Source of the DNA: a virus
Lineage: Duplodnaviria; Caudoviricetes
DNA length: 64,000 bases
Direction: 5' to 3' (one strand)
IMG/VR virus record: IMGVR_UViG_3300048853_000062
Span: 4,853-68,852 of that record
Made by a program: the position numbers and the translations under genes. The notes beneath the pieces were generated by a model, which was not told the origin of the DNA, searched no databases, and saw only the letters and a list, made by a program, of their open reading frames with translations. Positions 1,085-63,151 of this stretch are shown here, piece after piece; position 1 is the stretch's first letter, and each line of letters opens with the position of its first letter.

Positions 1085-1459
1085 TCAGCGACTGGGGACG
1101 GTCGGGAGTACCGGGACCGTTGGAAGTGGCGTGTAGGGCAACGTGGGCCCAACCGTCTGTGTGGCGGTCGGCGGCGGTGCCGACGTCGCCCGCTCGGACG
1201 GCGTCACCACCGTGGTGTTCGTGATGGTCGGTTCGGGTAGATCAGCGGGCCTGTCGGCGGCGTTCATCGCCAGCATCACCCCCCATGCACCTACGCCGAA
1301 GAGGATAGACGCTCCGGTGGCGACGAGGATCCAGAACGTGTTGCTCCGACGCTGTGGGGGCGCGAACGCGTGTGACTGCCAACGGGTTCCGTCCCAGTAG
1401 CGCCGCCGGTCGGGCGATTGCGGATCTGGGTACCAACCCGGTGCGCTCACCCCGTCCAC
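1085..1459 (-). CDS. DUF2510 domain membrane protein
   Basis: PGWYPDP...RRYWDGTRW motif, one TM helix, Pro/Thr-rich tail. Confidence 0.85.
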   Translation of the reverse strand: MDGVSAPGWYPDPQSPDRRRYWDGTRWQSHAFAPPQRRSNTFWILVATGASILFGVGAWGVMLAMNAADRPADLPEPTITNTTVVTPSERATSAPPPTATQTVGPTLPYTPLPTVPVLPTVPSR

Positions 1460-1463
1460 CTCA

Positions 1464-1718
1464 TCATCGAATCGTAGCGACGAGGCGGTGCCTCTCAGCG
1501 CGCGATGCGCGAATCCTTCGCAGTCGGTTCACCATCAACGGATCGACAGCGAGCGCTTGTTCCGTATCGAGTAGCTGATTGAGTCGCTGGTAGAACCGGA
1601 CGGGCGACATGCCGAGCCGGTCGCGGATGGCCTGCTCCTTGCCGCCGGCCGTGTCCCAACGTTGCGCCTCGAGGTCGAGAATGCGTCGGTCATGTTCGTT
1701 TAAGGTATCCAGAGCCAC
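1464..1718 (-). CDS. DUF3263 family protein
   Basis: KEQAIRDRLGMSPVRFYQRLNQLLD...DPLMVNRLRRIR signature. Confidence 0.8.
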   Translation of the reverse strand: MALDTLNEHDRRILDLEAQRWDTAGGKEQAIRDRLGMSPVRFYQRLNQLLDTEQALAVDPLMVNRLRRIRASRAERHRLVATIR

Positions 1719-2140
1719 TGATCCTCCAGGTGATGTTCGAGTTCGGCGACCTCGAGCGGGTCAAGCGTCGCCATGCGGACGTTCAGGGTCGGCCGGTCCA
1801 CCCAGAGGTGCTCGGCCAGGTCGTCGAGCTGGCGGGTCCACCGGAGTCCGTCGACCAGCGCCTCGGTGGTGATCAGCCGCCGCGCGGCGATCTCGTCGAC
1901 CTGACGCTCTTCCCGCGCCGCCGCCGCCGGGTCGTGAGGTACGGGCCCGCGCTCACGATGCACCAACTCGTGCGTGAGAGTGCATCGACGCTCCGCCTGA
2001 GTCAGCCCGCGGGCGAGCCAGATGCGCCGACCGAGCTGCAGCCCCATGACACGGTCAGGCAGCCGGTGCCGGCAGGTGACGTCGACCTCGACGTAGTGAT
2101 CGCGGAGCATCCGCCACGGATGCCAACGGGTGTCCCCCAT
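1700..2140 (-). CDS. ImmA/IrrE family metallopeptidase
   Basis: ERRCTLTHELVH (HExxH) and EERQVDEIAARRLI motifs. Confidence 0.85.
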   Translation of the reverse strand: MGDTRWHPWRMLRDHYVEVDVTCRHRLPDRVMGLQLGRRIWLARGLTQAERRCTLTHELVHRERGPVPHDPAAAAREERQVDEIAARRLITTEALVDGLRWTRQLDDLAEHLWVDRPTLNVRMATLDPLEVAELEHHLEDQWLWIP

Positions 2141-2201
2141 GACGACGGACGCTACGGAAGCGGACCGACAAGATCGGCCCTGACCTGCAACTACACCTTT
2201 G

Positions 2202-2747
2202 TTATTCGGTAGCTTCCGGTATCGATTGCTGATTGTCCGCCATTGGCGTGATCTCCACCTCGCCGCCCATCCAGGGATTGCGGATGAGGTCCATCGCTGC
2301 CGGAGGGTAGCCCATTCTCATGGATAGCGACTGCACGGTCTCTCGACCGTAGGGGTGACAAGTCATCAGGCCCTGGCCGATCGCGAAGCACTGCACATCC
2401 TCGACAGTCGGTTCAGCGCCCTCAAGCAGTTCCCAATCAGCGCAGATCTCGAGGTCAATTGCCCATAGTCGGTCTGGTTCTCCACCATCGGCGTCGTCGC
2501 TGTCATCCGACTTGACGTTGGCCGCCGACACTTCGTACTTCACCATCGTTCCGAGATAACGGTTTTCACGATCGAGCTGGAACGAGATGTGAATGTTGGT
2601 GAGGAGTTGGGTCGGTTCTTCTTCTACATACGGACGGAATCCTTCGCACTGCGCGCGCGCCACCCGTACGAGCCGCAACTCACCGATACAAGCCAAAACA
2701 CGTGACGCGGCCGCGAGACCGTCGGCTGACTTGATCGTCTCGGTCAT
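2202..2747 (-). CDS. SecB-like chaperone of a TAC system
   Basis: C-terminal HPYGRETVQSLSMRMGYPPAAMDL matches the SecB/Rv1957-type PY.RE....L..R...PP helix; third gene of the toxin-antitoxin operon. Confidence 0.8.
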   Translation of the reverse strand: MTETIKSADGLAAASRVLACIGELRLVRVARAQCEGFRPYVEEEPTQLLTNIHISFQLDRENRYLGTMVKYEVSAANVKSDDSDDADGGEPDRLWAIDLEICADWELLEGAEPTVEDVQCFAIGQGLMTCHPYGRETVQSLSMRMGYPPAAMDLIRNPWMGGEVEITPMADNQQSIPEATE

Positions 2748-3149
2748 CTATGCGGCGCCAACAAGAGGCTTTGACTCCGTCACTGCCTCGGCGATGTTCA
2801 TGCGCGCGGTGCTGTACGCACGTCGTTTTGCCACACGCAGGGGCTGCTGAATGCTGATGGTCCGAACGTCTTCCTCGATGGCGCTGCGAATTGGGCGCAA
2901 CGTGACGGCGGCTTCCTTGCCTAGAACGTGCAGCATCGCTGCGAGTGTCTTGATGGTCAGGTTCCGTTTACCGGAGAGGCGCTGTCCGACTTCATTCTTC
3001 GACACGTGCAGGAGGTCAGCCAGTTCTTGTTTTGTTTCGACGCCTGCTTCGTCCATCGCCTTGTAAACCAGTTCCGTGCAAGCCAGGATCAAACGCTCCT
3101 CCGAGAGCATTTGTTCGCTTTCTGGTGTGACATCAAACCAGTCACTCAT
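2748..3149 (-). CDS. higA: HigA-like HTH antitoxin with C-terminal extension (putative ChAD)
   Basis: XRE HTH (TKQELADLLHVSKNEVGQRLSGKRNLTIKTLA) plus ~45-aa tail; 4-bp overlap with the toxin. Confidence 0.8.
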   Translation of the reverse strand: MSDWFDVTPESEQMLSEERLILACTELVYKAMDEAGVETKQELADLLHVSKNEVGQRLSGKRNLTIKTLAAMLHVLGKEAAVTLRPIRSAIEEDVRTISIQQPLRVAKRRAYSTARMNIAEAVTESKPLVGAA

Positions 3150-3559
3150 GGCCGGTCCCTTCCTTCTGATGTCTCTCGACCCTTGCGGTATGCGTCGCGC
3201 GCTCGCTTAGCGTGCTTCTTCAGTGTCGACTCTTTCGGCTTCTTGGCTCCATGTGTTGCAACGAACAAGTTGTCCTCGACGATTCCGAACAATCGGTAGC
3301 CTGGGCCGTCCGGAATCTTCATCTCATGGACGGGTGGTTTGTCCTCATCACACTGAAGCTTGCGCATCTGATCCGGGTTGCGGAGGTATCCCACGGCGCA
3401 GTAGTGCTCAAACCTTGACTTGAACTGGGCTTTCGCGCGCGCCGGCAGCGCAGCCAAGAACTGCTCAACCTCACACACTCCGTCCGTAGTCACCGCGACG
3501 ACCATCTTTCGGTGGCTTGGCCCTCCTTCGATGGGCTTCCGTCCGTCCGGTGAAGTCAT
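3146..3559 (-). CDS. higB: HigB/RelE (Gp49/DUF891-like) toxin
   Basis: EVEQFLAAL...HEMKI...YRLFG...VATHGAKKP pattern; toxin-first order upstream of an HTH gene. Confidence 0.8.
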   Translation of the reverse strand: MTSPDGRKPIEGGPSHRKMVVAVTTDGVCEVEQFLAALPARAKAQFKSRFEHYCAVGYLRNPDQMRKLQCDEDKPPVHEMKIPDGPGYRLFGIVEDNLFVATHGAKKPKESTLKKHAKRARDAYRKGRETSEGRDRP

Positions 3560-3574
3560 AACTTCACCACACCC

Positions 3575-3603
3575 ACGATAGCGAGTCCAATCGGTATTGT
3601 CAG
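3575..3603 (-). promoter_or_regulatory. Putative SigA promoter for the TAC operon
   Basis: Minus strand CTGACA (3603-3598), 17-nt spacer, TATCGT (3580-3575), 15 nt upstream of the higB ATG. Confidence 0.6.
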
Positions 3604-3677
3604 GGGTAACGTGACATCCGCCTCACCAGCGGTTTCAATGCTCGATACCCGTTCCAGGCGCGCTTGAACCCGGTATG

Positions 3678-4655
3678 TCACGCGTCGCTCTCCGACGCCC
3701 CGCCCTCGTCCTGGTTCTCTTCTCCGCCGGGATCACCCTGCTCAGCCTGCCCCAGGATGTAGCCCGGGGGAGCGGTGCGGGCCGCTGCGGCGAGGCCCCG
3801 GTCAGGCGGAGCGCCGTTCGGTGTCGGTACCGGGCCCCTAGCATCGCTGTGCTCGATCGGCCTCGCCAGGTGGTGCACACGCTCGTTCGAGGGGTCACCG
3901 CGGTGAGGCTGGGCAACGTACCTTGGCACCTCAGAGGGGAAGTCGGCGGGATTTGGTGCGACGCCTTCAACGGGCAATGGGTTGGGCTTGGCGTACTCCG
4001 GGAGCTGCTCGCTCTCATTTGAATAGCCATCCGCCACCCATCGCTGTTCCAGTCGCAGCTGCAACTCGTTGACGAATGAGCTCACTTCAAGCTGTTCTGC
4101 CCGCGGCAGCCAGTCGATCCGGACATGCAACGTACGGAGTTCGTCGTCCTCAATGAACCGAGTCAAGACCGCAGTCTCGTCCTCAGTGAGCTGACTGCCA
4201 GCCGTTCCGAAGCTGTGAAACAGCTTGTTCCTCAGGTTGGTGAGCGTTTTACGGTCGGCGCTTGATAGAGGCAGCGAGACGCGGGGGGCGCCGGGGTTCT
4301 CACCGAGCGCTTTCATGATCTCGCTCAGCACAGGTGCGTTGGGTGCATTCCTTGGGAGCACCGGCATGCGGGTCATTTGTTCTTGCAGCCAAGGCGGTAC
4401 GCCGTCACCCTCGGGAATCACACCGGGTTCGCCCCCTCTCAGGATTGAGGCAATGCTTCCTGGCTGCCATAGGAGAGCGCGCTCGAGCGGCTGGCTTGTG
4501 CTCGTACGGAAGTCGGTGTGTTTGCCGTTCTCGATCAGGCGGAGCGTTGCCGTCGAAGGTCCCCCGGACGCTTGTATGTCGGCTTGCGTCAGCTTCAACG
4601 CCTTCCTGCGTGCGCGAACCAGACGGCCCAAGCGGGCTGCTGCATCTTCTGCCAT
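3678..4655 (-). CDS. Immunity repressor (XRE HTH with long C-terminal region)
   Basis: N-terminal LGRLVRARRKALKLTQADI...STATLRLIENGK HTH; divergent from the cro-like gene; ATG at 4655 preferred over the track start 4754. Confidence 0.85.
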   Translation of the reverse strand: MAEDAAARLGRLVRARRKALKLTQADIQASGGPSTATLRLIENGKHTDFRTSTSQPLERALLWQPGSIASILRGGEPGVIPEGDGVPPWLQEQMTRMPVLPRNAPNAPVLSEIMKALGENPGAPRVSLPLSSADRKTLTNLRNKLFHSFGTAGSQLTEDETAVLTRFIEDDELRTLHVRIDWLPRAEQLEVSSFVNELQLRLEQRWVADGYSNESEQLPEYAKPNPLPVEGVAPNPADFPSEVPRYVAQPHRGDPSNERVHHLARPIEHSDARGPVPTPNGAPPDRGLAAAARTAPPGYILGQAEQGDPGGEENQDEGGASESDA

Positions 4656-4842
4656 ATGGCAGACGCTCCCATCGCTAATCGGGACAAGTCCAGTCAAGTT
4701 TCGACAAGTTGTGTCAACTCTTGACCAGTCTAAGCGCCAGCTCAGCGCTATCACCGATAGTTACATGCTTGTCGTTCTGCAGTTCAGCGCCGAAGCAATC
4801 GCTGTTTCCCTTGCGATCTAGCGATAGTTGTCTATAGTTGTC
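4648..4842. promoter_or_regulatory. Lysis/lysogeny switch region with candidate operators
   Basis: 16-bp palindrome TCTGCCATATGGCAGA (4648-4663); five G[AT]C[AC]A[GC]T 7-mers at 10-bp period (4683-4729); two inverted copies at 4826 and 4836. Confidence 0.65.
4811..4838 (+). promoter_or_regulatory. Early lytic promoter (likely leaderless cro mRNA)
   Basis: TTGCGA (4811-4816), 16-nt spacer, TATAGT (4833-4838); ATG at 4846. Confidence 0.6.
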
Positions 4843-4845
4843 GTC

Positions 4846-5136
4846 ATGCCAGCGATTGAACCGCTAGGACCGATGATTCGGATGAAAGATGTGCGCCTGC
4901 TGCTCGGTCTAAGCCAGGTGCAGGTCACAGAGCGAATGAGCGAGCACGGCGTTGAGATGAGCGGCGCCGGCCTCTCCAACATCGAGAACGGCAACAAGAA
5001 GGCCAGCGATCGCGTCCTCATCGCTTGGGCGAAAGCGCTCGGCATCGACCCGTTGAATGTTTGGCACGGCCCATTGCGACCCCAGGTGCAGCCGCCCCAT
5101 ACGCCGCGCCGCGGACGCCAGCAGGTGCCGGCATGA
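4846..5136 (+). CDS. Cro-like XRE HTH protein
   Basis: RLLLGLSQVQVTERM...SGAGLSNIENGNKKAS HTH; divergent from the repressor. Confidence 0.85.
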   Translation: MPAIEPLGPMIRMKDVRLLLGLSQVQVTERMSEHGVEMSGAGLSNIENGNKKASDRVLIAWAKALGIDPLNVWHGPLRPQVQPPHTPRRGRQQVPA

Positions 5137-5993
5137 ATGGCATCCCAGACCCCGGCCAAGCGTCCGGATACTTCGGCGCCCTTGAGCGGACCGCGCGTCC
5201 AGAGGGGCCGATGGAGTTCGCGTTCGACGAGCACATCGTGCGCGCGCTACTCATCGCGGACGATCCGTGGTTCGTACTGGCCGATGTCTGCCGCGCTCTC
5301 GACATTCGCAATGTCGGGAACGTGACTGCCCGCCTCGCTGACTCGGGGGCTGGTATCCGCCAGGCGGACATCAGGTCCGGCGGCCAGATGCGGGCGGTCA
5401 CGATTACCGACGAGTCCGGTTTGTACGAGATCGTGATCCGGTCGGACAAGCCGGAAGCGCGGAAGTTCCGCCGGTGGGTGACTTCGGATGTTCTGCCTTC
5501 GATCCGAAGGACTGGCTCGTACTCTCACTACCCGGCCCACCCAGCCACTGCATTGCCATCGAAGAAGGAGCTGGCGCAGTGGGTCGTCGAGGCGGAGGAA
5601 CGCGCTGACGCTGCCGAGTCCCGCGCCGCCGAACTCGAGCCCTCCGCGGTCGCGTGGGACCGCCTCTACGAGATCGGCGCCGACTATGAGGTGGCTGACG
5701 CGGCGAAGATTCTTTCCCGCGACCCGAACATCGAAATTGGCCGCAACCGCCTCTTCGAGTTCATGCACGACCAGGACTGGATCTTCCGCGGCCGGCACAA
5801 CTGCTGGAAGGCATACCAGGACCAGGTCGACTGCGGCCGGCTAAAGCACCGGCCGGGCGGCGAGTACTTCCACAAGCCATCCGGCGAGTACCGGACAGGC
5901 GATCCCACGATCCTCATTACGCCGAAGGGTCTGGCTGAACTGCGCCGACTGCTCGGTGGTCACGCCGAACTCTCCCTGGTGGTGTCGTCATGA
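5133..5993 (+). CDS. Phage antirepressor (BRO-N plus ANT/KilAC)
   Basis: PWFVLADVCRAL...ESGLYEIVIRSDKPEARKFRRWVTSDVLPSIRRTGSY, and C-terminal IGRNRLFEFM...LITPKG. Confidence 0.9.
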   Translation: MNGIPDPGQASGYFGALERTARPEGPMEFAFDEHIVRALLIADDPWFVLADVCRALDIRNVGNVTARLADSGAGIRQADIRSGGQMRAVTITDESGLYEIVIRSDKPEARKFRRWVTSDVLPSIRRTGSYSHYPAHPATALPSKKELAQWVVEAEERADAAESRAAELEPSAVAWDRLYEIGADYEVADAAKILSRDPNIEIGRNRLFEFMHDQDWIFRGRHNCWKAYQDQVDCGRLKHRPGGEYFHKPSGEYRTGDPTILITPKGLAELRRLLGGHAELSLVVSS

Positions 5994-55451: not shown

Positions 55452-56610
55452 TCATCGCGAGGTCAGCGACCAAAACGCCAGCGGGGTAAGGGGTTCGAAT
55501 CCCCTTAGCTCCACCAAAGAGGTCTTAGTTGAACCCGCGCCCGAAAGGATGTCGGCAAGAGTAGGAGCTAACCCAGAAGAATACCGATCATCAGCTGCTC
55601 GATCCGAGGCTCCCGCAAGGGGGCCTCGTTTCGTAGTTGTTGTCGATGCTGTGGTCCCAGTTCGCGCGGCTGTTGTCAATTTCACGGCAGCGTGAAGTTC
55701 GTCGAACGGCGCCTTCAGTTCACTCGTCTGCACGCCTTGGTCGTCGAGGAAGATGCGTTGGTAGTAGGTCTCATTGAGATTCCGGCGAATCGAGTCTGTG
55801 CCGCGGGCGTACGTCACCGCGGGGTCGGACATCAGATCAAGAGCGCCGAAAAGCACTTCGGCACCGACAGCAAGCACTTCGCCGGTGTTGGCGAGTCGGG
55901 CCTCCGTGACGTTCCGTTCGGTCTGGATCTTGCGCAACTTCTCCCTCACCTTCGCCTGCGGGAGTCGGTCGTCGGCGAGCAGGTCAAGAAGCCGATCTTT
56001 CTTGGCCTCTAGCTCCCTAAGCTTGCGGCTGACGGCTGCGTGCCGTTCGGCGGTGCTGCGTTGTTCTTCGCCGAGCGCTTCGTCGAGCAGTTGGCGCACC
56101 TGTCGATGAAGTTGGTCGGCAGATCCAGCGTTGTGTAGTGGTCGACGATGGCCTGCTCGACGTGGGCGGCTGGTAGGTACGGCAGATCGCAAACGCCGTC
56201 CTGGCGGCCGCGGCACAGGAAATACCCGTAGCGGTTGCCGAACCGATTGGTCGCTTCGGTGTAGATCAGGCGTGAGGTGCGTTCGTTTCTCTCGCAGCGG
56301 TCGCAGAACAGAATGCCTTTGAGGTAGTGCTGGAGGACTCGGTCACCTTGGCCGCTCTTGCTGCGGAAGGCGATCACTTCCTGGACCCTGTCGAACAAAA
56401 GGGGGTCAACAATCGGTTCGTGCCGTCCGTCGTAGATCTCGCCTTTGTAGACGATGCAGCCGATGTAGTAGCGGTCTTGCAACATCCGGTGCAGCCACTT
56501 GAAGGTGACGGGACGTTCTGGGAGCCCGCCCGCGGCGCGTGCCGTGAGACCGAGGTCGGCCATCGTTGCTTCCAGTCGTTCGAGTCCGTAGTCGCCGGTG
56601 GCGTAGAAGA
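55452..56610 (-). pseudogene. Large serine recombinase: N-terminal catalytic domain missing and 1-nt frameshift at ~56102
   Basis: YATGDY...MLQDRYYIG...GRHEPIV recombinase domain, CDRC/YFLC zinc ribbon, coiled coil; restoring GAC-CAG joins ORFs 56009-56662 and 55452-56216. Confidence 0.85.
55489..55516 (+). other. Prophage attR core: 3' end of a tRNA-Ala (T-arm plus acceptor strand plus CCA)
   Basis: AGGGGTTCGAATCCCCTTAGCTCCACCA; T-stem AGGGG/CCCCT with TTCGAAT loop; no D-arm or anticodon arm upstream. Confidence 0.85.
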
Positions 56611-58326: not shown

Positions 58327-59325
58327 ATGGCAACGAATGACCAGCTCAAGGCGCTTGTCAAGAGCCATGCCGACCGCGACGATCCCCAGTTCTATTCCGT
58401 CGCCATGCAGGTTGCGGCGAAGGCCGCTCGGGCCGGGCAGGGCAAGTTCGCTCAGGAGCTTCGTAACCTTATTGATGATTTGCGCGAGCGGGGAGTAGCG
58501 CAGTCACGAATTGCCGCGGTCGTGCCGGTCACTCAACCACGCGGCGAGCTCAGTTCGTTGCTTACCGTCAGTTATCCTGATGCGCGCGCCGCTGACTTAG
58601 TCCTTTCGCCCGCACTTGGGCAACAGCTGCGACAGGTTCTCCTTGAACAGCGGCAACGTGATGTCTTGCGGCGCCACGGACTTCGTCCGGCCAGCCGCGT
58701 CCTCCTGATTGGGCCACCTGGGACCGGAAAGACGTCGACGGCGAGAGTCATTGCAGGCGAACTCGGCTTGCCGTTGTTCGCCATCCGGCTCGACACGATC
58801 ATCACCAAGTACATGGGGGAGACCGCGGCCAAGCTGCGCCTGATCTTCGATGCACTCGTGGAAACGCAAGGCATCTACCTCTTCGATGAGGTAGATGCGC
58901 TGGCTGGTGATCGCGCGGCTTCGAACGATGTTGGCGAGATTCGTCGTGTCCTGAACTCGTTTCTGCAGTTTCTGGAGGAAGACCGGTCCGATAGCGTCGT
59001 GGTTGCTGCGACGAATCATCCGCAGTTGCTTGACATTGCGCTCTTGCGACGCTTCGACACTGTCATGGATTTCGCGCTACCGAATGATGACGGTATTCGC
59101 GCTGTCATCACTAACCGGCTCACCTCTTTGCTTAGTGCCAATTTGAGCTGGAAACGCGTGATTGAAGCTGCGGGGGGTCTGAGTCACGCGGAGATCACGA
59201 TCGCCGCTGAAAATGCCGCCAAGCGGACGGTGCTTTCGGGTCGAAAGCGAACTCTGACTGACGATCTCGTGACAGCACTTAAAGAGCGACCGCGGACGAG
59301 GGCGCGGCGTGACTCGATTCCATAG
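58327..59325 (+). CDS. ietA: AAA+ ATPase (IetA-like)
   Basis: GPPGTGKT, LFDEVD, VLNSFLQFLE, AATNHPQLLDIALLRRFD; GGAGG RBS. Confidence 0.85.
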   Translation: MATNDQLKALVKSHADRDDPQFYSVAMQVAAKAARAGQGKFAQELRNLIDDLRERGVAQSRIAAVVPVTQPRGELSSLLTVSYPDARAADLVLSPALGQQLRQVLLEQRQRDVLRRHGLRPASRVLLIGPPGTGKTSTARVIAGELGLPLFAIRLDTIITKYMGETAAKLRLIFDALVETQGIYLFDEVDALAGDRAASNDVGEIRRVLNSFLQFLEEDRSDSVVVAATNHPQLLDIALLRRFDTVMDFALPNDDGIRAVITNRLTSLLSANLSWKRVIEAAGGLSHAEITIAAENAAKRTVLSGRKRTLTDDLVTALKERPRTRARRDSIP

Positions 59326-59330
59326 GCAGC

Positions 59331-61883
59331 ATGGCTGAACGCGATAGACCGCACATTGTGGTGCCGGCCCTCCCGGCATCCGAGCCGTTCACCCTCGCAG
59401 GCGCCGGCGGCGGAACTGAAAAGGAGCCGTTCACTGGGGACCGGGCGGGTCACGGTCGTCGGCTCGCACGAGAGCTTCAGGACGCGTTGGCTCCGACCAG
59501 TGATGAACCCGAATCCGCTGGGATCTACATAACTTTCGTGTCTTTCCCAGGGCTGGAGCTCGCGTTGGAGAGTCTGGACCCACAGTCCGCGGGTGAACAG
59601 CCCGAGTTGCTAGTGGTGCGCGAGGTTGAGACCGCGGACGGCGCTGTTCAGATGGCAACTGTCTACATACCCGACGGGAAGAAGGAGTACTTCCTTAAGC
59701 GTCTCACCGCCTATACCGACACAGCGACGAACGACAAGGCGCGGCATGCTGCGCTTGTTGAGGCTATTCAGTCCATTCGGCGGGCGACGATTCGTGAGTT
59801 GTGGACCGACCCGGAGGACCTGTTCCCGGACGACCAACGAGAGTCGCGGTGGTGGGAGGTGTGGTTACGCAACCGCGACAACCATGAGCGCGAGAGGTTT
59901 ACCGCGTTCGTGGCGGAACGACAATTGCGTACCAGCCAGCACTACCTCGGATTCGGCGACAGAACCGTAGTCCTGCTGCGCGCGACAGCTGATGAGCTAT
60001 CTCAGACGTTCGAATCACTCGATGACATCGCTGAGCTACGGCGACCGCATGATGTCGCGAGTTTCCTCACTGAGCTCCCCGCCTTCGAGCAGACATCGTG
60101 GGCAGAGGACCTACTGAACCGTCTGCAGCCCGCCGGTGACGGGGCTCCTGTGGTTTGCCTGCTAGACACCGGAGTGCAAGACAGTCATCCGCTGCTGACT
60201 GCATCGCTTGATGCATCCGACCTACATGTAGCCGACGCTACTTGGCAACTGCAACCGCAGAATCCGCACGGAACAGAGATGGCAGGTCTTGCCCTCTACG
60301 GAGATGTTCAAGCCGCCATCACCGACGGCGCTACGGTCCAACTCCGACACCGGTTGGAATCCGTAAAGTTCTTGCCCGACAACGGTGTTAACGACCCCGA
60401 TCTTTACGGTGCGGTCACTGCCCGCTCAGTCGACCGACCTGAGATTCAAGCGGCCGACCGCCCCCGTGTCTTTATGCTCGCCGTCACCGCGCCGCGGCCC
60501 GACTCCACCGATAGCGTCACCGAGCCTACCGAGCGTCATGAGGCGGGCCGCCCTACATCTTGGTCAGCGACCATCGACGCACTTGCCTTCGGCAGGGCTA
60601 TCGATGACACCGACCCCGAGTTCACCTACTTGGACCGTGACGAACCGCGTCGACCCCGACTGTTCGTTGTCTCGGCCGGAAACATCAGAGATATTAGAGC
60701 CACCGACGACCACCTTGCCCGCAGTGATGTGGAACCCGTCGAAGACCCGGCGCAATCGTGGAACGCACTCACAGTGGGTGCGTACTCGGCGCACGACGAC
60801 ATGGCTGGTGCGCCAACGGGATTCGAGGGCTACACGCCGATTGCGCCGCGTGGCGAACTCGCCCCGGTTAGCCGTACCTCGGTGGTGTTCGACCGGAAGA
60901 AGTGGCCGTTCAAACCCGACGTAGTGGCCGACGGCGGGAACGTAGCCACTTCGCTGGACCACACCGGAGTTGATACGCCCCCCAACCTGGCATTGCTTAC
61001 AACTCGACTGCAAGGATCGGGCCAAGGTCTCTTCACCACAACACGCGATACCTCCGCAGCGACGGCTCAGGTCGCAGCGATCGCTGCCGATATTCAAGCC
61101 GCCTATCCAACTCTCAAGCCCGAGACAGTACGTGGGCTCATCGTCCACTCGGCGCAATGGACCGAAGCGATGCGAAACCGCTTCGCATCGGAGTCGAACA
61201 AGACTCGCCTTGCCAGCCTGCTACGCCGATACGGCATGGGCGTGCCCGACGCTGGACGGGCACTCCGAAGCGCAGTCGACGCGCTCACTCTCATTGCGGA
61301 GGCACGCATACACCCATACGAACAAGAAGCCGGAAGCGCAGCAAAAGTCCGCGAGATGAACCTTCATCAGCTCCCCTGGCCGACAGACGAGTTGGCGTCC
61401 CTGGGCGAGGTGATAGTTCGCCTACGCGTCACACTGTCCTATTTCGTCGAGCCAAATCCCTCCAGTCGCGGCTGGACGGGCAGATACGTGTATCCCTCCC
61501 ACGGGTTAAGGTTCGCGACGCGGCGACCGGAGGACAGCGTCGAGACGTTCCGCCAGCGAATCAACACTCGGGCACGCGCCGAAGGCCAAAAACCACCATC
61601 GCTTGACACCGAGGTGGGCTGGCTGTTCGGGAGTAACCAGCAACAAAGCCCGGGGTCACTCCACACCGATGTGTGGTGCGGTTCGGCCGTTGCGCTGGCC
61701 AGCAAAGGCGCCGTGGCGGTGTACCCCGTCGCGGGATGGTGGAAGAACCGAAGGCGCTATGACCAAAGCGATCAGGGAGTCGACTACTCGCTGATTGTCA
61801 GCATCGAGTCACCTGAGGTCGAGATCGATCTGTGGACACCGGTTGCGCAGCAGATCTCGGCTGAAGTGCAGATCGAGACGTGA
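59331..61883 (+). CDS. ietS: S8 subtilisin-like serine protease (IetS/Y4bN-like)
   Basis: Triad motifs LLDTGV, HGTEMAG and DTSAATA; VSAGN oxyanion motif; KPDVVADGGN. Confidence 0.85.
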   Translation: MAERDRPHIVVPALPASEPFTLAGAGGGTEKEPFTGDRAGHGRRLARELQDALAPTSDEPESAGIYITFVSFPGLELALESLDPQSAGEQPELLVVREVETADGAVQMATVYIPDGKKEYFLKRLTAYTDTATNDKARHAALVEAIQSIRRATIRELWTDPEDLFPDDQRESRWWEVWLRNRDNHERERFTAFVAERQLRTSQHYLGFGDRTVVLLRATADELSQTFESLDDIAELRRPHDVASFLTELPAFEQTSWAEDLLNRLQPAGDGAPVVCLLDTGVQDSHPLLTASLDASDLHVADATWQLQPQNPHGTEMAGLALYGDVQAAITDGATVQLRHRLESVKFLPDNGVNDPDLYGAVTARSVDRPEIQAADRPRVFMLAVTAPRPDSTDSVTEPTERHEAGRPTSWSATIDALAFGRAIDDTDPEFTYLDRDEPRRPRLFVVSAGNIRDIRATDDHLARSDVEPVEDPAQSWNALTVGAYSAHDDMAGAPTGFEGYTPIAPRGELAPVSRTSVVFDRKKWPFKPDVVADGGNVATSLDHTGVDTPPNLALLTTRLQGSGQGLFTTTRDTSAATAQVAAIAADIQAAYPTLKPETVRGLIVHSAQWTEAMRNRFASESNKTRLASLLRRYGMGVPDAGRALRSAVDALTLIAEARIHPYEQEAGSAAKVREMNLHQLPWPTDELASLGEVIVRLRVTLSYFVEPNPSSRGWTGRYVYPSHGLRFATRRPEDSVETFRQRINTRARAEGQKPPSLDTEVGWLFGSNQQQSPGSLHTDVWCGSAVALASKGAVAVYPVAGWWKNRRRYDQSDQGVDYSLIVSIESPEVEIDLWTPVAQQISAEVQIET

Positions 61884-61975
61884 GAGCGCCGTCGGTGGCC
61901 ATGTCTATCGTGTAAACCGCAGCCGCGAACCCGTACGGAAACGGCCAATCGATCGCCTACTTGGAGAGGAGCGGC

Positions 61976-63151
61976 ATGAAGGTCTTCATCTCCTCGGTCA
62001 CGTATCTGCTCAAGGGGGAGCGCGGGGCACTCCCGCCGTTCCTGAAGTTGTTCGATCACGAGCCGCTGAGGTTCGAGGACTTCGAAGCCCAGGACCGGTC
62101 GAGCCGGGAGGCATGCCTGGCCGGGGTCGAGGCGGCGGACGTCTACGTCCTCTTGCTTGGCCCGCGTTATGGAACACCGTTTCCCGATACCGGTCTGTCT
62201 CCGACGGCGGAGGAGTTCCGGCGCGCTCGTCAACGTGACATCCCCATCCTTGTGTTCAACAAGACCACGGATGAGAAAGACGAACCGGCCCAAGTTGGCT
62301 TCAAGAACGAGGTCGGCCACTACGTGAACGGGCGCCTGTGGCGTTCGTTCACCGATCCGGCCAGCTGCAATCAGGCGGTCGGCGAAGCGTTGAAAGCACT
62401 TGACGCAGAACAGGGTCCGATTCCGCGCACGACACCGCAGGAACCTGTGACGGTGCCGTGGTTGAGCGAGATCCAGCTTAAGGCGGCCATAATTCCGGCA
62501 AGCGGATTCGTCGGCGGGCGCAACGGCGCCGTGCCGACCTCGGTGTCCGCGCCGGTTCTCGAATTCCACGTGCTGGGTATCGGCGTCACGAGCGCGCCCA
62601 GTCTGCGGCAACTCGAAGACCGCGCTCGGCAGTTGGCGCGCGACATGCGCTACATCGGGTTTGTCTCGGACGGTGATCAGTTGGTCGTCGGGGCCGCCGA
62701 CGGTTTCGGGTGGGCGGTGCGTCCACCGGCTACGTCTTCGTCGGGTTCGTTCCCCGAGCAGCTAACCGTCGAGCAATTCCGCGGTGCACTCATCCACCCG
62801 GCAGGAGTGTGCGCGTTCCGGTCGCTCGACACCGACATTATTGGTGCACTAGTCGACCAAAAGAGCCTGCAGACCGACCTCGCTTCGCTGTTCGCCGTTA
62901 TCTCGGCACAGCTCCCCGAGGCAGAGTGGGCCGCACTGGCCGCCGGGTTGTCTCGGGCAGACCGGGTCGGCGAGGGTGACCCGCGCATCGTCGGGACTCG
63001 CAACGCAGGGCGGCTGGGGATGACGGGACTGGCCGAACTCCGAGCCGGTGGCGACTTCGTAGTACCGACCCGTCGGCTCGCAGGTTCGTTTGGCGATCTC
63101 GGTGCAGATCTGGCGCACGCGATCATCGCGCAGCTTAGGCAACGGCGGTAG
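61976..63151 (+). CDS. DUF4062 (TIR/NDT-like) domain protein with an unknown C-terminal domain
   Basis: MKVFISS...ER...CLAGVEAADVYVLLLGPRYG...SPTAEEFRRA. Confidence 0.85.
   Translation: MKVFISSVTYLLKGERGALPPFLKLFDHEPLRFEDFEAQDRSSREACLAGVEAADVYVLLLGPRYGTPFPDTGLSPTAEEFRRARQRDIPILVFNKTTDEKDEPAQVGFKNEVGHYVNGRLWRSFTDPASCNQAVGEALKALDAEQGPIPRTTPQEPVTVPWLSEIQLKAAIIPASGFVGGRNGAVPTSVSAPVLEFHVLGIGVTSAPSLRQLEDRARQLARDMRYIGFVSDGDQLVVGAADGFGWAVRPPATSSSGSFPEQLTVEQFRGALIHPAGVCAFRSLDTDIIGALVDQKSLQTDLASLFAVISAQLPEAEWAALAAGLSRADRVGEGDPRIVGTRNAGRLGMTGLAELRAGGDFVVPTRRLAGSFGDLGADLAHAIIAQLRQRR

Follow-up and report, generated by a model that had tools for sequence, protein, structure and literature searches.

What does a toxin-antitoxin cassette that carries its own chaperone gene do on a prophage from a Mycobacterium-type host? 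The question is raised by three minus-strand open reading frames (ORFs) at positions 3559-2202 of a viral DNA stretch. The stretch, called the window here, is the whole of the DNA that was analysed, i.e., 64,000 nucleotides (nt) covering bases 4853-68852 of the 68.9-kilobase (kb) IMG/VR record IMGVR_UViG_3300048853_000062. A first-pass annotation of the window had read the three ORFs as a complete toxin-antitoxin-chaperone (TAC) operon of the HigB-HigA-SecB kind, acting as a phage-sensing immune module. Both TACs and the chaperone-addiction (ChAD) tail of their antitoxins are established (PMC3581621, PMC6377645), and prophage-borne TACs of E. coli are known to act in defence, with the chaperone as the sensor (bioRxiv 10.1101/2024.02.24.581848). 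TACs were defined in M. tuberculosis; an anti-phage role has been shown in E. coli only. As will be argued here, the cassette is very probably a genuine tripartite HigBA-SecB-type TAC, which a temperate prophage from a Mycobacterium-type host carries as cargo.

The first line of evidence is the layout of the cassette. The ORFs encode a toxin of 137 amino acids (aa), an antitoxin of 133 aa and a chaperone of 181 aa. At the first junction, the toxin stop and the antitoxin start share 4 base pairs (bp), read directly as CC-ATGA-GT. At the second junction, the TAG of the antitoxin abuts the ATG of the chaperone with no gap. The three genes are translationally coupled, and the same co-directional, coupled trio is found in four further loci. 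The overlap and the abutment had been reported in the first-pass annotation, along with the ORF positions and two peptides, HPYGRETVQSLSMRMGYPP (residues 131-149 of the chaperone) and RVAKRRAYSTARMNI (residues 105-119 of the antitoxin); all of these were borne out when the letters were read directly.

Single-sequence scans against Pfam, NCBIfam, PHROGs and PADLOC gave only sub-threshold matches for the toxin and the chaperone, and profile and fold methods were therefore needed. For the toxin, the only Pfam family touched is Gp49 (PF05973), with an E value (E) of 0.038 and 14.5 bits, under the Pfam gathering threshold of 23.9 bits. Six of the seven toxin relatives also match it, the best at E 1e-4, and all of them stay under the cut-off. 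A PDB sequence search with the toxin, both singly and as a profile, returned nothing relevant. The fold is clear: in the model (predicted local distance difference test, pLDDT, 77), one strand and two helices precede four strands, and a long C-terminal helix closes the chain. On re-alignment of the top Foldseek matches of this model (VIA Z), the HigB of S. pneumoniae (6AF4) reached a Z-score of 13.9, with a root-mean-square deviation (rmsd) of 1.9 A and 110/119 residues aligned. The HigB1/Rv1955 of M. tuberculosis (7AWK/7NBU) followed with Z 12.3-12.7, while generic RelE, YoeB, YafQ and ParE did not exceed 8.6. It is known that a third helix, which is functionally critical, sets HigB(TAC) apart from RelE (PMC9098466), and a third (C-terminal) helix of this type is present in the model. 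A RelE-type fold and a toxin gene placed 5' of an XRE antitoxin, the two marks of HigB/Gp49 toxins, are thus found together. The earlier call of a Gp49/HigB-like toxin holds by fold, and the protein is best described as a structural relative of Gp49 and not as a curated member of this Pfam family.

The residues of the toxin that are invariant in the family include E79, K81, R89, H103 and K109. The spacing of E79-x-K81, R89, H103 and K109 resembles that of E66-x-R68, R77, K95 and K99 in HigB1 (PMC9098466), a likeness of spacing only, from which a catalytic equivalence of these residues may be inferred. The N-terminus MTS is kept in all seven toxin relatives, so the 137-aa start is taken to be right. 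The stored 119-aa gene call, with its start at the internal Met19, begins too late and was rejected on account of this conserved N-terminus and of the conserved dyad at the start codon, described below.

The antitoxin is made of two unlike parts. Residues 1-85 are highly conserved in its 23 relatives, and their best PDB sequence match is the S. pneumoniae HigA (6AF3_B, residues 2-83, E 0.03). The toxin, by structure, and the antitoxin, by sequence, both best match one solved S. pneumoniae HigBA pair. As the conserved domain ends at about residue 85, the C-terminal tail described earlier as having about 45 aa comes to about 48 aa. In no other coding stretch of the cassette is conservation as low as in this tail. 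All the 23 relatives are 116-178 aa long and none of them lacks a tail; a C-terminal extension beyond the helix-turn-helix (HTH) domain, by which the ChAD of TACs is recognised, is therefore seen in every one. Within the variable tail, a few positions are nevertheless kept. Tyr112 (codon 2814-2816) is present in 19/23 relatives, the residue at +4 from it is Arg or Pro in 19/23, and the residue at +5 is Val, Leu, Met or Ile in 23/23. As a separate observation, the antitoxin (2748-3149) matches the PADLOC candidate defence families PDC-M64B (E 1e-9) and PDC-M64C (E 5e-7); no PADLOC model was matched by the toxin or the chaperone.

The only real PDB sequence match of the chaperone is 5MTW, i.e., Rv1957 of M. 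tuberculosis. It was obtained with the single sequence (E 2e-6), with a 6-sequence profile (E 7e-8) and with a 42-sequence profile (E 6e-18). The SecB proteins of H. influenzae and E. coli were reached by the same 42-sequence profile at 2e-4 to 2e-3. The AlphaFold model of the chaperone (pLDDT 84) gave 5MTW_C as its best Foldseek match (E 5e-10, template-modelling score 0.91 (target), rmsd 1.6 A), and the housekeeping SecB of E. coli and H. influenzae ranked after it, at about 5e-6. The window chaperone has no Pfam match of its own and reaches only E 0.064 with the NCBIfam SecB model, short of the curated cut-off (PF02556 / NF004392); the Pfam SecB scan of the window's own record gave no registration either. 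In the wider family, 26/42 chaperone relatives match Pfam SecB individually at E 0.01 or better. A SecB fold is hence present in the third gene product, as had been claimed, with Rv1957 as its best match. The protein belongs to the SecB-like superfamily, and is of the TA-associated (toxin-antitoxin-associated) kind and not an export-chaperone equivalog. On synteny and fold together, the reading of the third gene as an unrelated hitch-hiker was rejected.

Does this chaperone have the means to hold the antitoxin tail? In M. tuberculosis, binding of the ChAD depends on W108, R110 and, above all, Y114 (PMC6377645). Y114 is seated in a gorge of Rv1957 formed by L47, Y49 and L154-P155-P156-L157, while W108 and R110 touch D27-I28-R29 and G150/A153 (PMC6377645). 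In three HMMER alignments, A153-L154-P155-P156 of Rv1957 aligns to G146-Y147-P148-P149 of the window chaperone. These four residues are invariant in the close family; in the wide family, positions 146-149 carry G in 40/42, an aromatic residue (Y/W/F) in 41/42, P in 37/42 and P in 33/42 members. The second contact, D27-I28-R29, aligns with low confidence, in the N-terminal part, to positions 26-28, which hold D in 17/42, V/I in 41/42 and R in 37/42. Taken together, the Tyr of the tail and the conserved pocket positions fit a Tyr-anchored ChAD, which is no proof of one. On this pattern of conservation, chaperone addiction via the Tyr tail appears likely.

A simpler reading would be that of an ordinary chaperone-independent HigBA, with a SecB-like protein that serves phage or host clients and happens to be co-transcribed. 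The lack of similarity between the tail and the known ChAD speaks for it, and so does a genome note in which a SecB-like protein of the Gordonia phage Wrigley is described simply as export-factor-like (PMC9670969). However, the trio is intact, with overlapping or abutting genes, at all five loci; every antitoxin relative carries the tail; and the chaperone is nearer to Rv1957 than to the export SecB. Mycobacteria are, in addition, not known to export proteins via SecB. Chaperone independence is thus considered very unlikely, and a chaperone-addicted TAC is preferred.

The cassette is rare and its parts travel together. In 5.8 billion proteins, the close family comprises 6 chaperone, 7 toxin and 23 antitoxin clusters. 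Among 1.84 billion representatives, the chaperone has 5 clusters at E < 1e-30, the wider family numbering 491. Toxin or chaperone is carried by 2/50,697 phage records, and a scan of viral contigs found nothing with a narrow chaperone alignment and one contig with a broader one. The order toxin-antitoxin-chaperone is kept in all five loci examined, namely the window, the Gordonia phage Pollux, Mycobacterium sp. D16R18, Gordonia sp. CPCC 205333 and the distant viral contig L012; in each of them neighbouring genes overlap or abut, although protein identity ranges over about 35-75%. The cassette was also found in the Gordonia phage Floral, the locus of which was not opened. In Gordonia sp. CPCC 205333, it lies beside an integrase remnant. 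The Rv1955-1957-type order proposed at first, with a HigB-type toxin, an XRE antitoxin with a tail and a SecB-like protein, is now supported by sequence, fold, synteny and conservation, and the TAC identity is well supported. A different TAC type was seen in another Mycobacteriaceae genome (L008:297-1743), where a 95-aa HicA-like protein and a 208-aa HTH protein are followed by an overlapping 156-aa SecB-like protein.

The distribution bears on what the TAC is for. It has to be considered that the TAC is a stress-responsive growth regulator of the lysogen, in which proteotoxic stress loads the chaperone and the toxin becomes active, without any link to phages. The TAC genes of M. tuberculosis are indeed induced by heat, hypoxia, starvation and persistence (PMC3581621, PMC8669151), and the window chaperone is of the Rv1957 clade. 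However, a family that is so rare and patchy, with 6-7 clusters and a presence in 2/301 genomes drawn from the taxonomic family to which Mycobacterium sp. D16R18 belongs, and that is found mostly on temperate phages or phage remnants, ill suits a housekeeping stress role. A stress regulator is, for this reason, judged decidedly unlikely.

At the nucleotide level, the cassette has a conserved promoter of its own and a dyad at the toxin start codon. The promoter is one of only two sigma-70-like sites within 1400-5200 (3.8 kb). In four loci, the proteins of which are only about 43-70% identical to those of the window, the -35 element TGACAA is invariant and the -10 element reads TAnnGT. Downstream of it lies a 22-nt block that is identical in the four loci; it is the longest invariant run of the 1.5-kb alignment, the next longest being 6 nt. 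Within the block, the perfect dyad GTGAAGT-TATG-ACTTCAC (7+4+7) is centred on the toxin start codon and is unique in the window. In L012 (3236-3256), the dyad reads ATGAAGT-TTTG-ACTTCAT, a symmetric double change with a TTG start at its centre. As the dyad is kept there through a symmetric double substitution, there is good evidence that its symmetry itself is under selection. Folded as RNA, it gives a 9-bp stem with the AUG in the loop (z -3.7). Since the dyad starts about at the expected transcription start, it would be a natural operator for a dimeric antitoxin. The dyad may serve the antitoxin as an operator, act in the 5' RNA as a hairpin that conceals the start codon, or do both; such a hairpin could lower the translation of the toxin in a toxin-first operon.

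The setting of the cassette was also examined. In the record, to the left of the window, there are a host MFS transporter gene, a tRNA-Ala(GGC) at 3090-3164 and a tyrosine integrase at 3288-4496. An exact direct repeat of 26 nt from the tRNA 3' end marks attL and attR, and the prophage, of about 57 kb, is therefore integrated at the tRNA-Ala; everything to the right of 55515 is outside it. Between the att sites are the genes for an antirepressor, terminase, portal, capsid, tape measure and lysin. The locus had been called a mycobacterial prophage. The prophage part of this claim stands, with an att repeat, an integrase and structural genes; the mycobacterial part is supported as to the kind of host, short of proof of the genus. 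Identities of 61-65% link the portal to those of Mycobacterium phages and M. abscessus prophages, and as the structural genes most resemble those of Mycobacterium phages, "mycobacterial" seems a reasonable label. None of the 301 sampled genomes exceeds 79% identity to the host flank.

Within the prophage, the cassette spans the interval 3.9-5.3 kb from attL; the gene immediately upstream of it, on the same strand, is the immunity repressor. A divergent promoter and a Cro-like HTH gene are found upstream of the repressor, at 4811-5136. In the M. abscessus prophage prophiGD27-1, the slot of the cassette is filled by unrelated small genes, and in Wrigley by yet others, so its cargo is variable. 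Between the window, Pollux and Gordonia sp., the repressors that precede the cassette show no sequence relationship; therefore, the cassette was not inherited together with the repressor. The copy of Mycobacterium sp. D16R18 (L002:5150-6561) is flanked by an L,D-transpeptidase-like gene on one side and an aldo-keto reductase gene on the other. Its promoter and dyad are identical, and 0 phage genes are found within 3 kb. As this copy sits alone among chromosomal genes, the 1.4-kb cassette must move on its own; it is a mobile unit, travelling between phages and chromosomes.

Mobility of this kind brings in the main rival reading, i.e., a real TAC whose main role is addiction, stabilising the prophage or the cassette by killing or arresting the cells that lose it, with no sensing of phages. 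A self-contained 1.4-kb unit with its own promoter, which is also found alone in a chromosome, fits a selfish element. The cassette lies near the integrase and the att end and would be lost on excision, and the classical higBA was found as a plasmid-stability locus (bioRxiv 10.1101/2024.02.24.581848). Against this, two prophage-borne E. coli TACs and two earlier TACs were reported to be phage-protective (bioRxiv 10.1101/2024.02.24.581848), and the variable cargo slot near the repressor is like the known prophage defence loci (PMC8092301). Moreover, addiction and defence are not exclusive of each other because an unstable antitoxin serves both equally. As the main role, addiction is held to be rather unlikely.

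Considering the whole of the evidence, a HigBA-SecB TAC that is chaperone-addicted and senses phages appears to be the best explanation, with the balance of the evidence moderately on its side. Three points favour it indirectly: the Tyr of the tail and the chaperone positions aligned to the ChAD contacts of Rv1957 are conserved, there is a separate promoter for the cassette on the lysogenic strand, and the cassette follows the repressor directly, like the HigBAC of the E. coli strain NT1F31. That defence against other phages would be its main role is a somewhat weaker claim, for which the chances seem slightly short of even. The earlier remark that such a module must escape being triggered by the capsid or tail proteins of its own prophage is speculative.

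Several points weigh against this explanation. The window proteins are only 13-20% identical to those of the M. tuberculosis TAC, and the window cassette is therefore a separate lineage and not an orthologue of Rv1955-1957. The toxin and the window's own chaperone remain below the curated Pfam and NCBIfam cut-offs. With the antitoxin as query, HigA1 and the ChAD peptide of 5MTW both went unfound at E values of up to 10, and nothing in the antitoxin tail corresponds in an obvious way to the Trp and Arg of the HigA1 ChAD. On the chaperone side, positions 26-28 read L-V-R, with Leu where Rv1957 has D27, in an N-terminal half whose alignment to Rv1957 is of low confidence. As the D16R18 cassette lies among ordinary chromosomal genes, its role need not be specific to prophages. 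For the M. tuberculosis TAC, too, the biological role is unsettled (PMC6377645). Finally, the toxicity, the chaperone dependence and the phage restriction of the window cassette are all inferred.

Under the phage-sensing explanation, the cassette may work as follows. In the lysogen, it would be transcribed from its own promoter, independently of the lytic genes of the phage. The antitoxin dimer, alone or with the toxin, would probably autoregulate the operon by binding the dyad at the transcription start, while the dyad in the mRNA could damp the translation of the toxin. The tail would destabilise the antitoxin unless the chaperone holds the conserved Tyr112 and its basic/hydrophobic neighbours. 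The Tyr is envisaged to dock in a chaperone pocket made of the G-Y-P-P helix end and the x-V-R strand, modelled on the docking of Tyr114, Trp108 and Arg110 of HigA1 on Rv1957. Should a competing client occupy the chaperone, the antitoxin would be lost. By analogy with the E. coli HigBAC, the most likely client would be a structural protein that a superinfecting phage makes in abundance. Cleavage of ribosome-bound mRNA by the freed toxin would then abort the infection.

A wider proposal may be offered as a tentative one, with more chance of being wrong than right. It holds that the rare actinobacterial HigB-HigA-SecB lineage is phage cargo of the repressor-proximal slot of temperate Mycobacterium and Gordonia phages, where it would act as a chaperone-titration sensor of superinfection. 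The M. tuberculosis TAC would then be a domesticated relic of phage-borne immunity, and the dyad would be both an operator and an RNA hairpin that sets the toxin-to-antitoxin ratio.

Table 1. Positions in the window of the cassette features and of the neighbouring features, with the basis of each assignment.
Feature	Position	Strand	Basis
Cassette promoter, CTGACA-17 nt-TATCGT	3575..3603	-	in the 118-bp gap after the repressor gene
22-nt invariant block, TGTGGTGAAGTTATGACTTCAC	3550..3571	-	-12 to +10 of the toxin ATG
Toxin, HigB/Gp49-type RelE-superfamily fold with long C-terminal helix	3146..3559	-	model and family scans
Antitoxin residues 1-85, N-terminal segment and XRE helix-turn-helix (HigA-like)	2895..3149	-	HTH_3 E 1e-6
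Antitoxin residues 86-133, variable basic tail, candidate ChAD	2751..2894	-	conservation
SecB-like TA-associated chaperone, 181 aa	2202..2747	-	PDB 5MTW match, model
Immunity repressor (context)	3678..4754	-	57% identical to gp11 of M. abscessus prophiGD27-1
M78/ImmA-like metalloprotease	2140-1700	-	Peptidase_M78 E 3.5e-5
DUF3263/NapA-like protein	1718-1464	-	DUF3263 E 3e-30
attR core, exact copy of the tRNA-Ala 3' end	55490..55515	+	26/26 match, 0 expected by chance

Downstream of the chaperone, the metalloprotease is 45% identical to Pollux gp40, which occupies the same position. A scan of the minus strand for terminators found no canonical one in the 61-nt gap between the chaperone and the metalloprotease. 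Read-through from the TAC promoter might thus couple the cassette with the metalloprotease/DUF3263 unit. The pair of metalloprotease and DUF3263 genes, for which phrog_87 (E 2e-22) was also matched, is itself kept beside the integrase in Pollux, Wrigley and prophiGD27-1. Just outside the prophage, there is a same-strand trio of an AAA ATPase (58327-59325), an S8 subtilase (59331-61883) and a DUF4062 protein (61961-63151). This trio adjoins a stretch of low GC content (56-58 kb, GC 0.55) and may be a separate defence-like island.

The cassette brings a tractable actinobacterial model and no new principle. A complete temperate prophage bears an intact TAC of the Rv1957 type, and its orthologues are found on the cultured Gordonia phages Pollux and Floral, which grow on a laboratory host. 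Whether actinobacterial TACs sense the structural proteins of phages through competition for the chaperone can thus be tested directly. The conserved start-codon dyad offers, in addition, a concrete and testable regulatory element. The subject also bears on which phages such lysogens resist and, through it, on the choice of phages against non-tuberculous mycobacteria.

How does the cassette compare with the known systems? With the M. tuberculosis TAC, made of Rv1955 (HigB1), Rv1956 (HigA1) and Rv1957 (SecB-TA; 5MTW, 7AWK, 7NBU), it shares the gene order and the tight coupling. The long C-terminal helix of the toxin is common to both (Z 12.3-12.7), and in both the XRE antitoxin ends in a tail that has a Tyr near residue 112-114. 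The ChAD-contacting P-P helix end and the V/I-R strand of the chaperone are kept. The window tail is, however, unrelated in sequence to the HigA1 tail and has no clear Trp-x-Arg. The gene upstream in the M. tuberculosis operon, Rv1954A (PMC3912914), has no counterpart in the window. The location differs too, the window TAC being on an intact prophage by the immunity repressor and the M. tuberculosis TAC in an 81-kb genomic island. The S. pneumoniae HigBA (6AF3/6AF4), in turn, has two genes and no chaperone, and its antitoxin, of 97 aa, has no tail. In M. smegmatis, the Msmeg2144-SmegB pair consists of a SecB-like gene by an HTH gene in prophage-derived DNA, and lacks a toxin. This prophage-linked antitoxin-chaperone pair had been noted in 2013, when a phage origin of the TAC chaperone was proposed (PMC3581621).

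The HigBAC of E. coli NT1F31 (bioRxiv 10.1101/2024.02.24.581848) has a HigB-type toxin, a HigA and a SecB-like chaperone, as in the window. The ChAD of its HigA is aromatic-dependent, and the window tail carries the conserved Tyr. It lies directly downstream of cI in a variable defence slot of a lambdoid prophage, and the window cassette is likewise placed by the repressor. The host is proteobacterial, and both the trigger, lambda gpV, and the defence were demonstrated there, whereas those of the window are predicted by analogy.

Among the actinobacteriophages, Wrigley gp48-47-46 (L013:7694-9137) fills the same slot, between the repressor and the peptidase, HTH and integrase genes. Its genes code in turn for an unknown protein of 187 aa, an HTH protein, and a protein of 141 aa that the genome note calls SecB-like (PMC9670969). 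Gp46 was tried as a member of the window chaperone family, and profile comparison gave no link (probability 1.9%); gp48 matches no known family. Possibly, the Wrigley trio is another phage TAC, of separate origin and with a toxin of a new kind. A survey of M. abscessus prophages listed TA systems, with no SecB or TAC among them (PMC8092301); lysogens express these TA systems, for which a defensive role is presumed (PMC8092301). Literature searches on SecB-like proteins of mycobacteriophages and actinobacteriophages yielded no description of a phage TAC, only the note on Wrigley (PMC9670969), in which that conclusion is not drawn.

The closest systems are genes 43-42-41 of the Gordonia phage Pollux (41-40-39 of Floral). 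These are orthologues, with 70% identity for the toxin, about 59-62% for the antitoxin and 46% for the chaperone. They have the promoter and the 22-nt dyad block of the window, and the neighbours also agree, with a repressor upstream and the metalloprotease, HTH and integrase genes downstream; the host genus is different and the repressor unrelated. In GenBank, the Floral toxin alone is named (RelE-like), and the chaperone is 'hypothetical' in both phages, so the trio had gone unrecognised as a TAC; the annotation is corrected here. TACs, their presence on prophages and their role in defence are already published, and the present cassette is a divergent addition to them. Within the literature searched, it seems to be the first complete TAC recognised on temperate phages of Mycobacterium and Gordonia.

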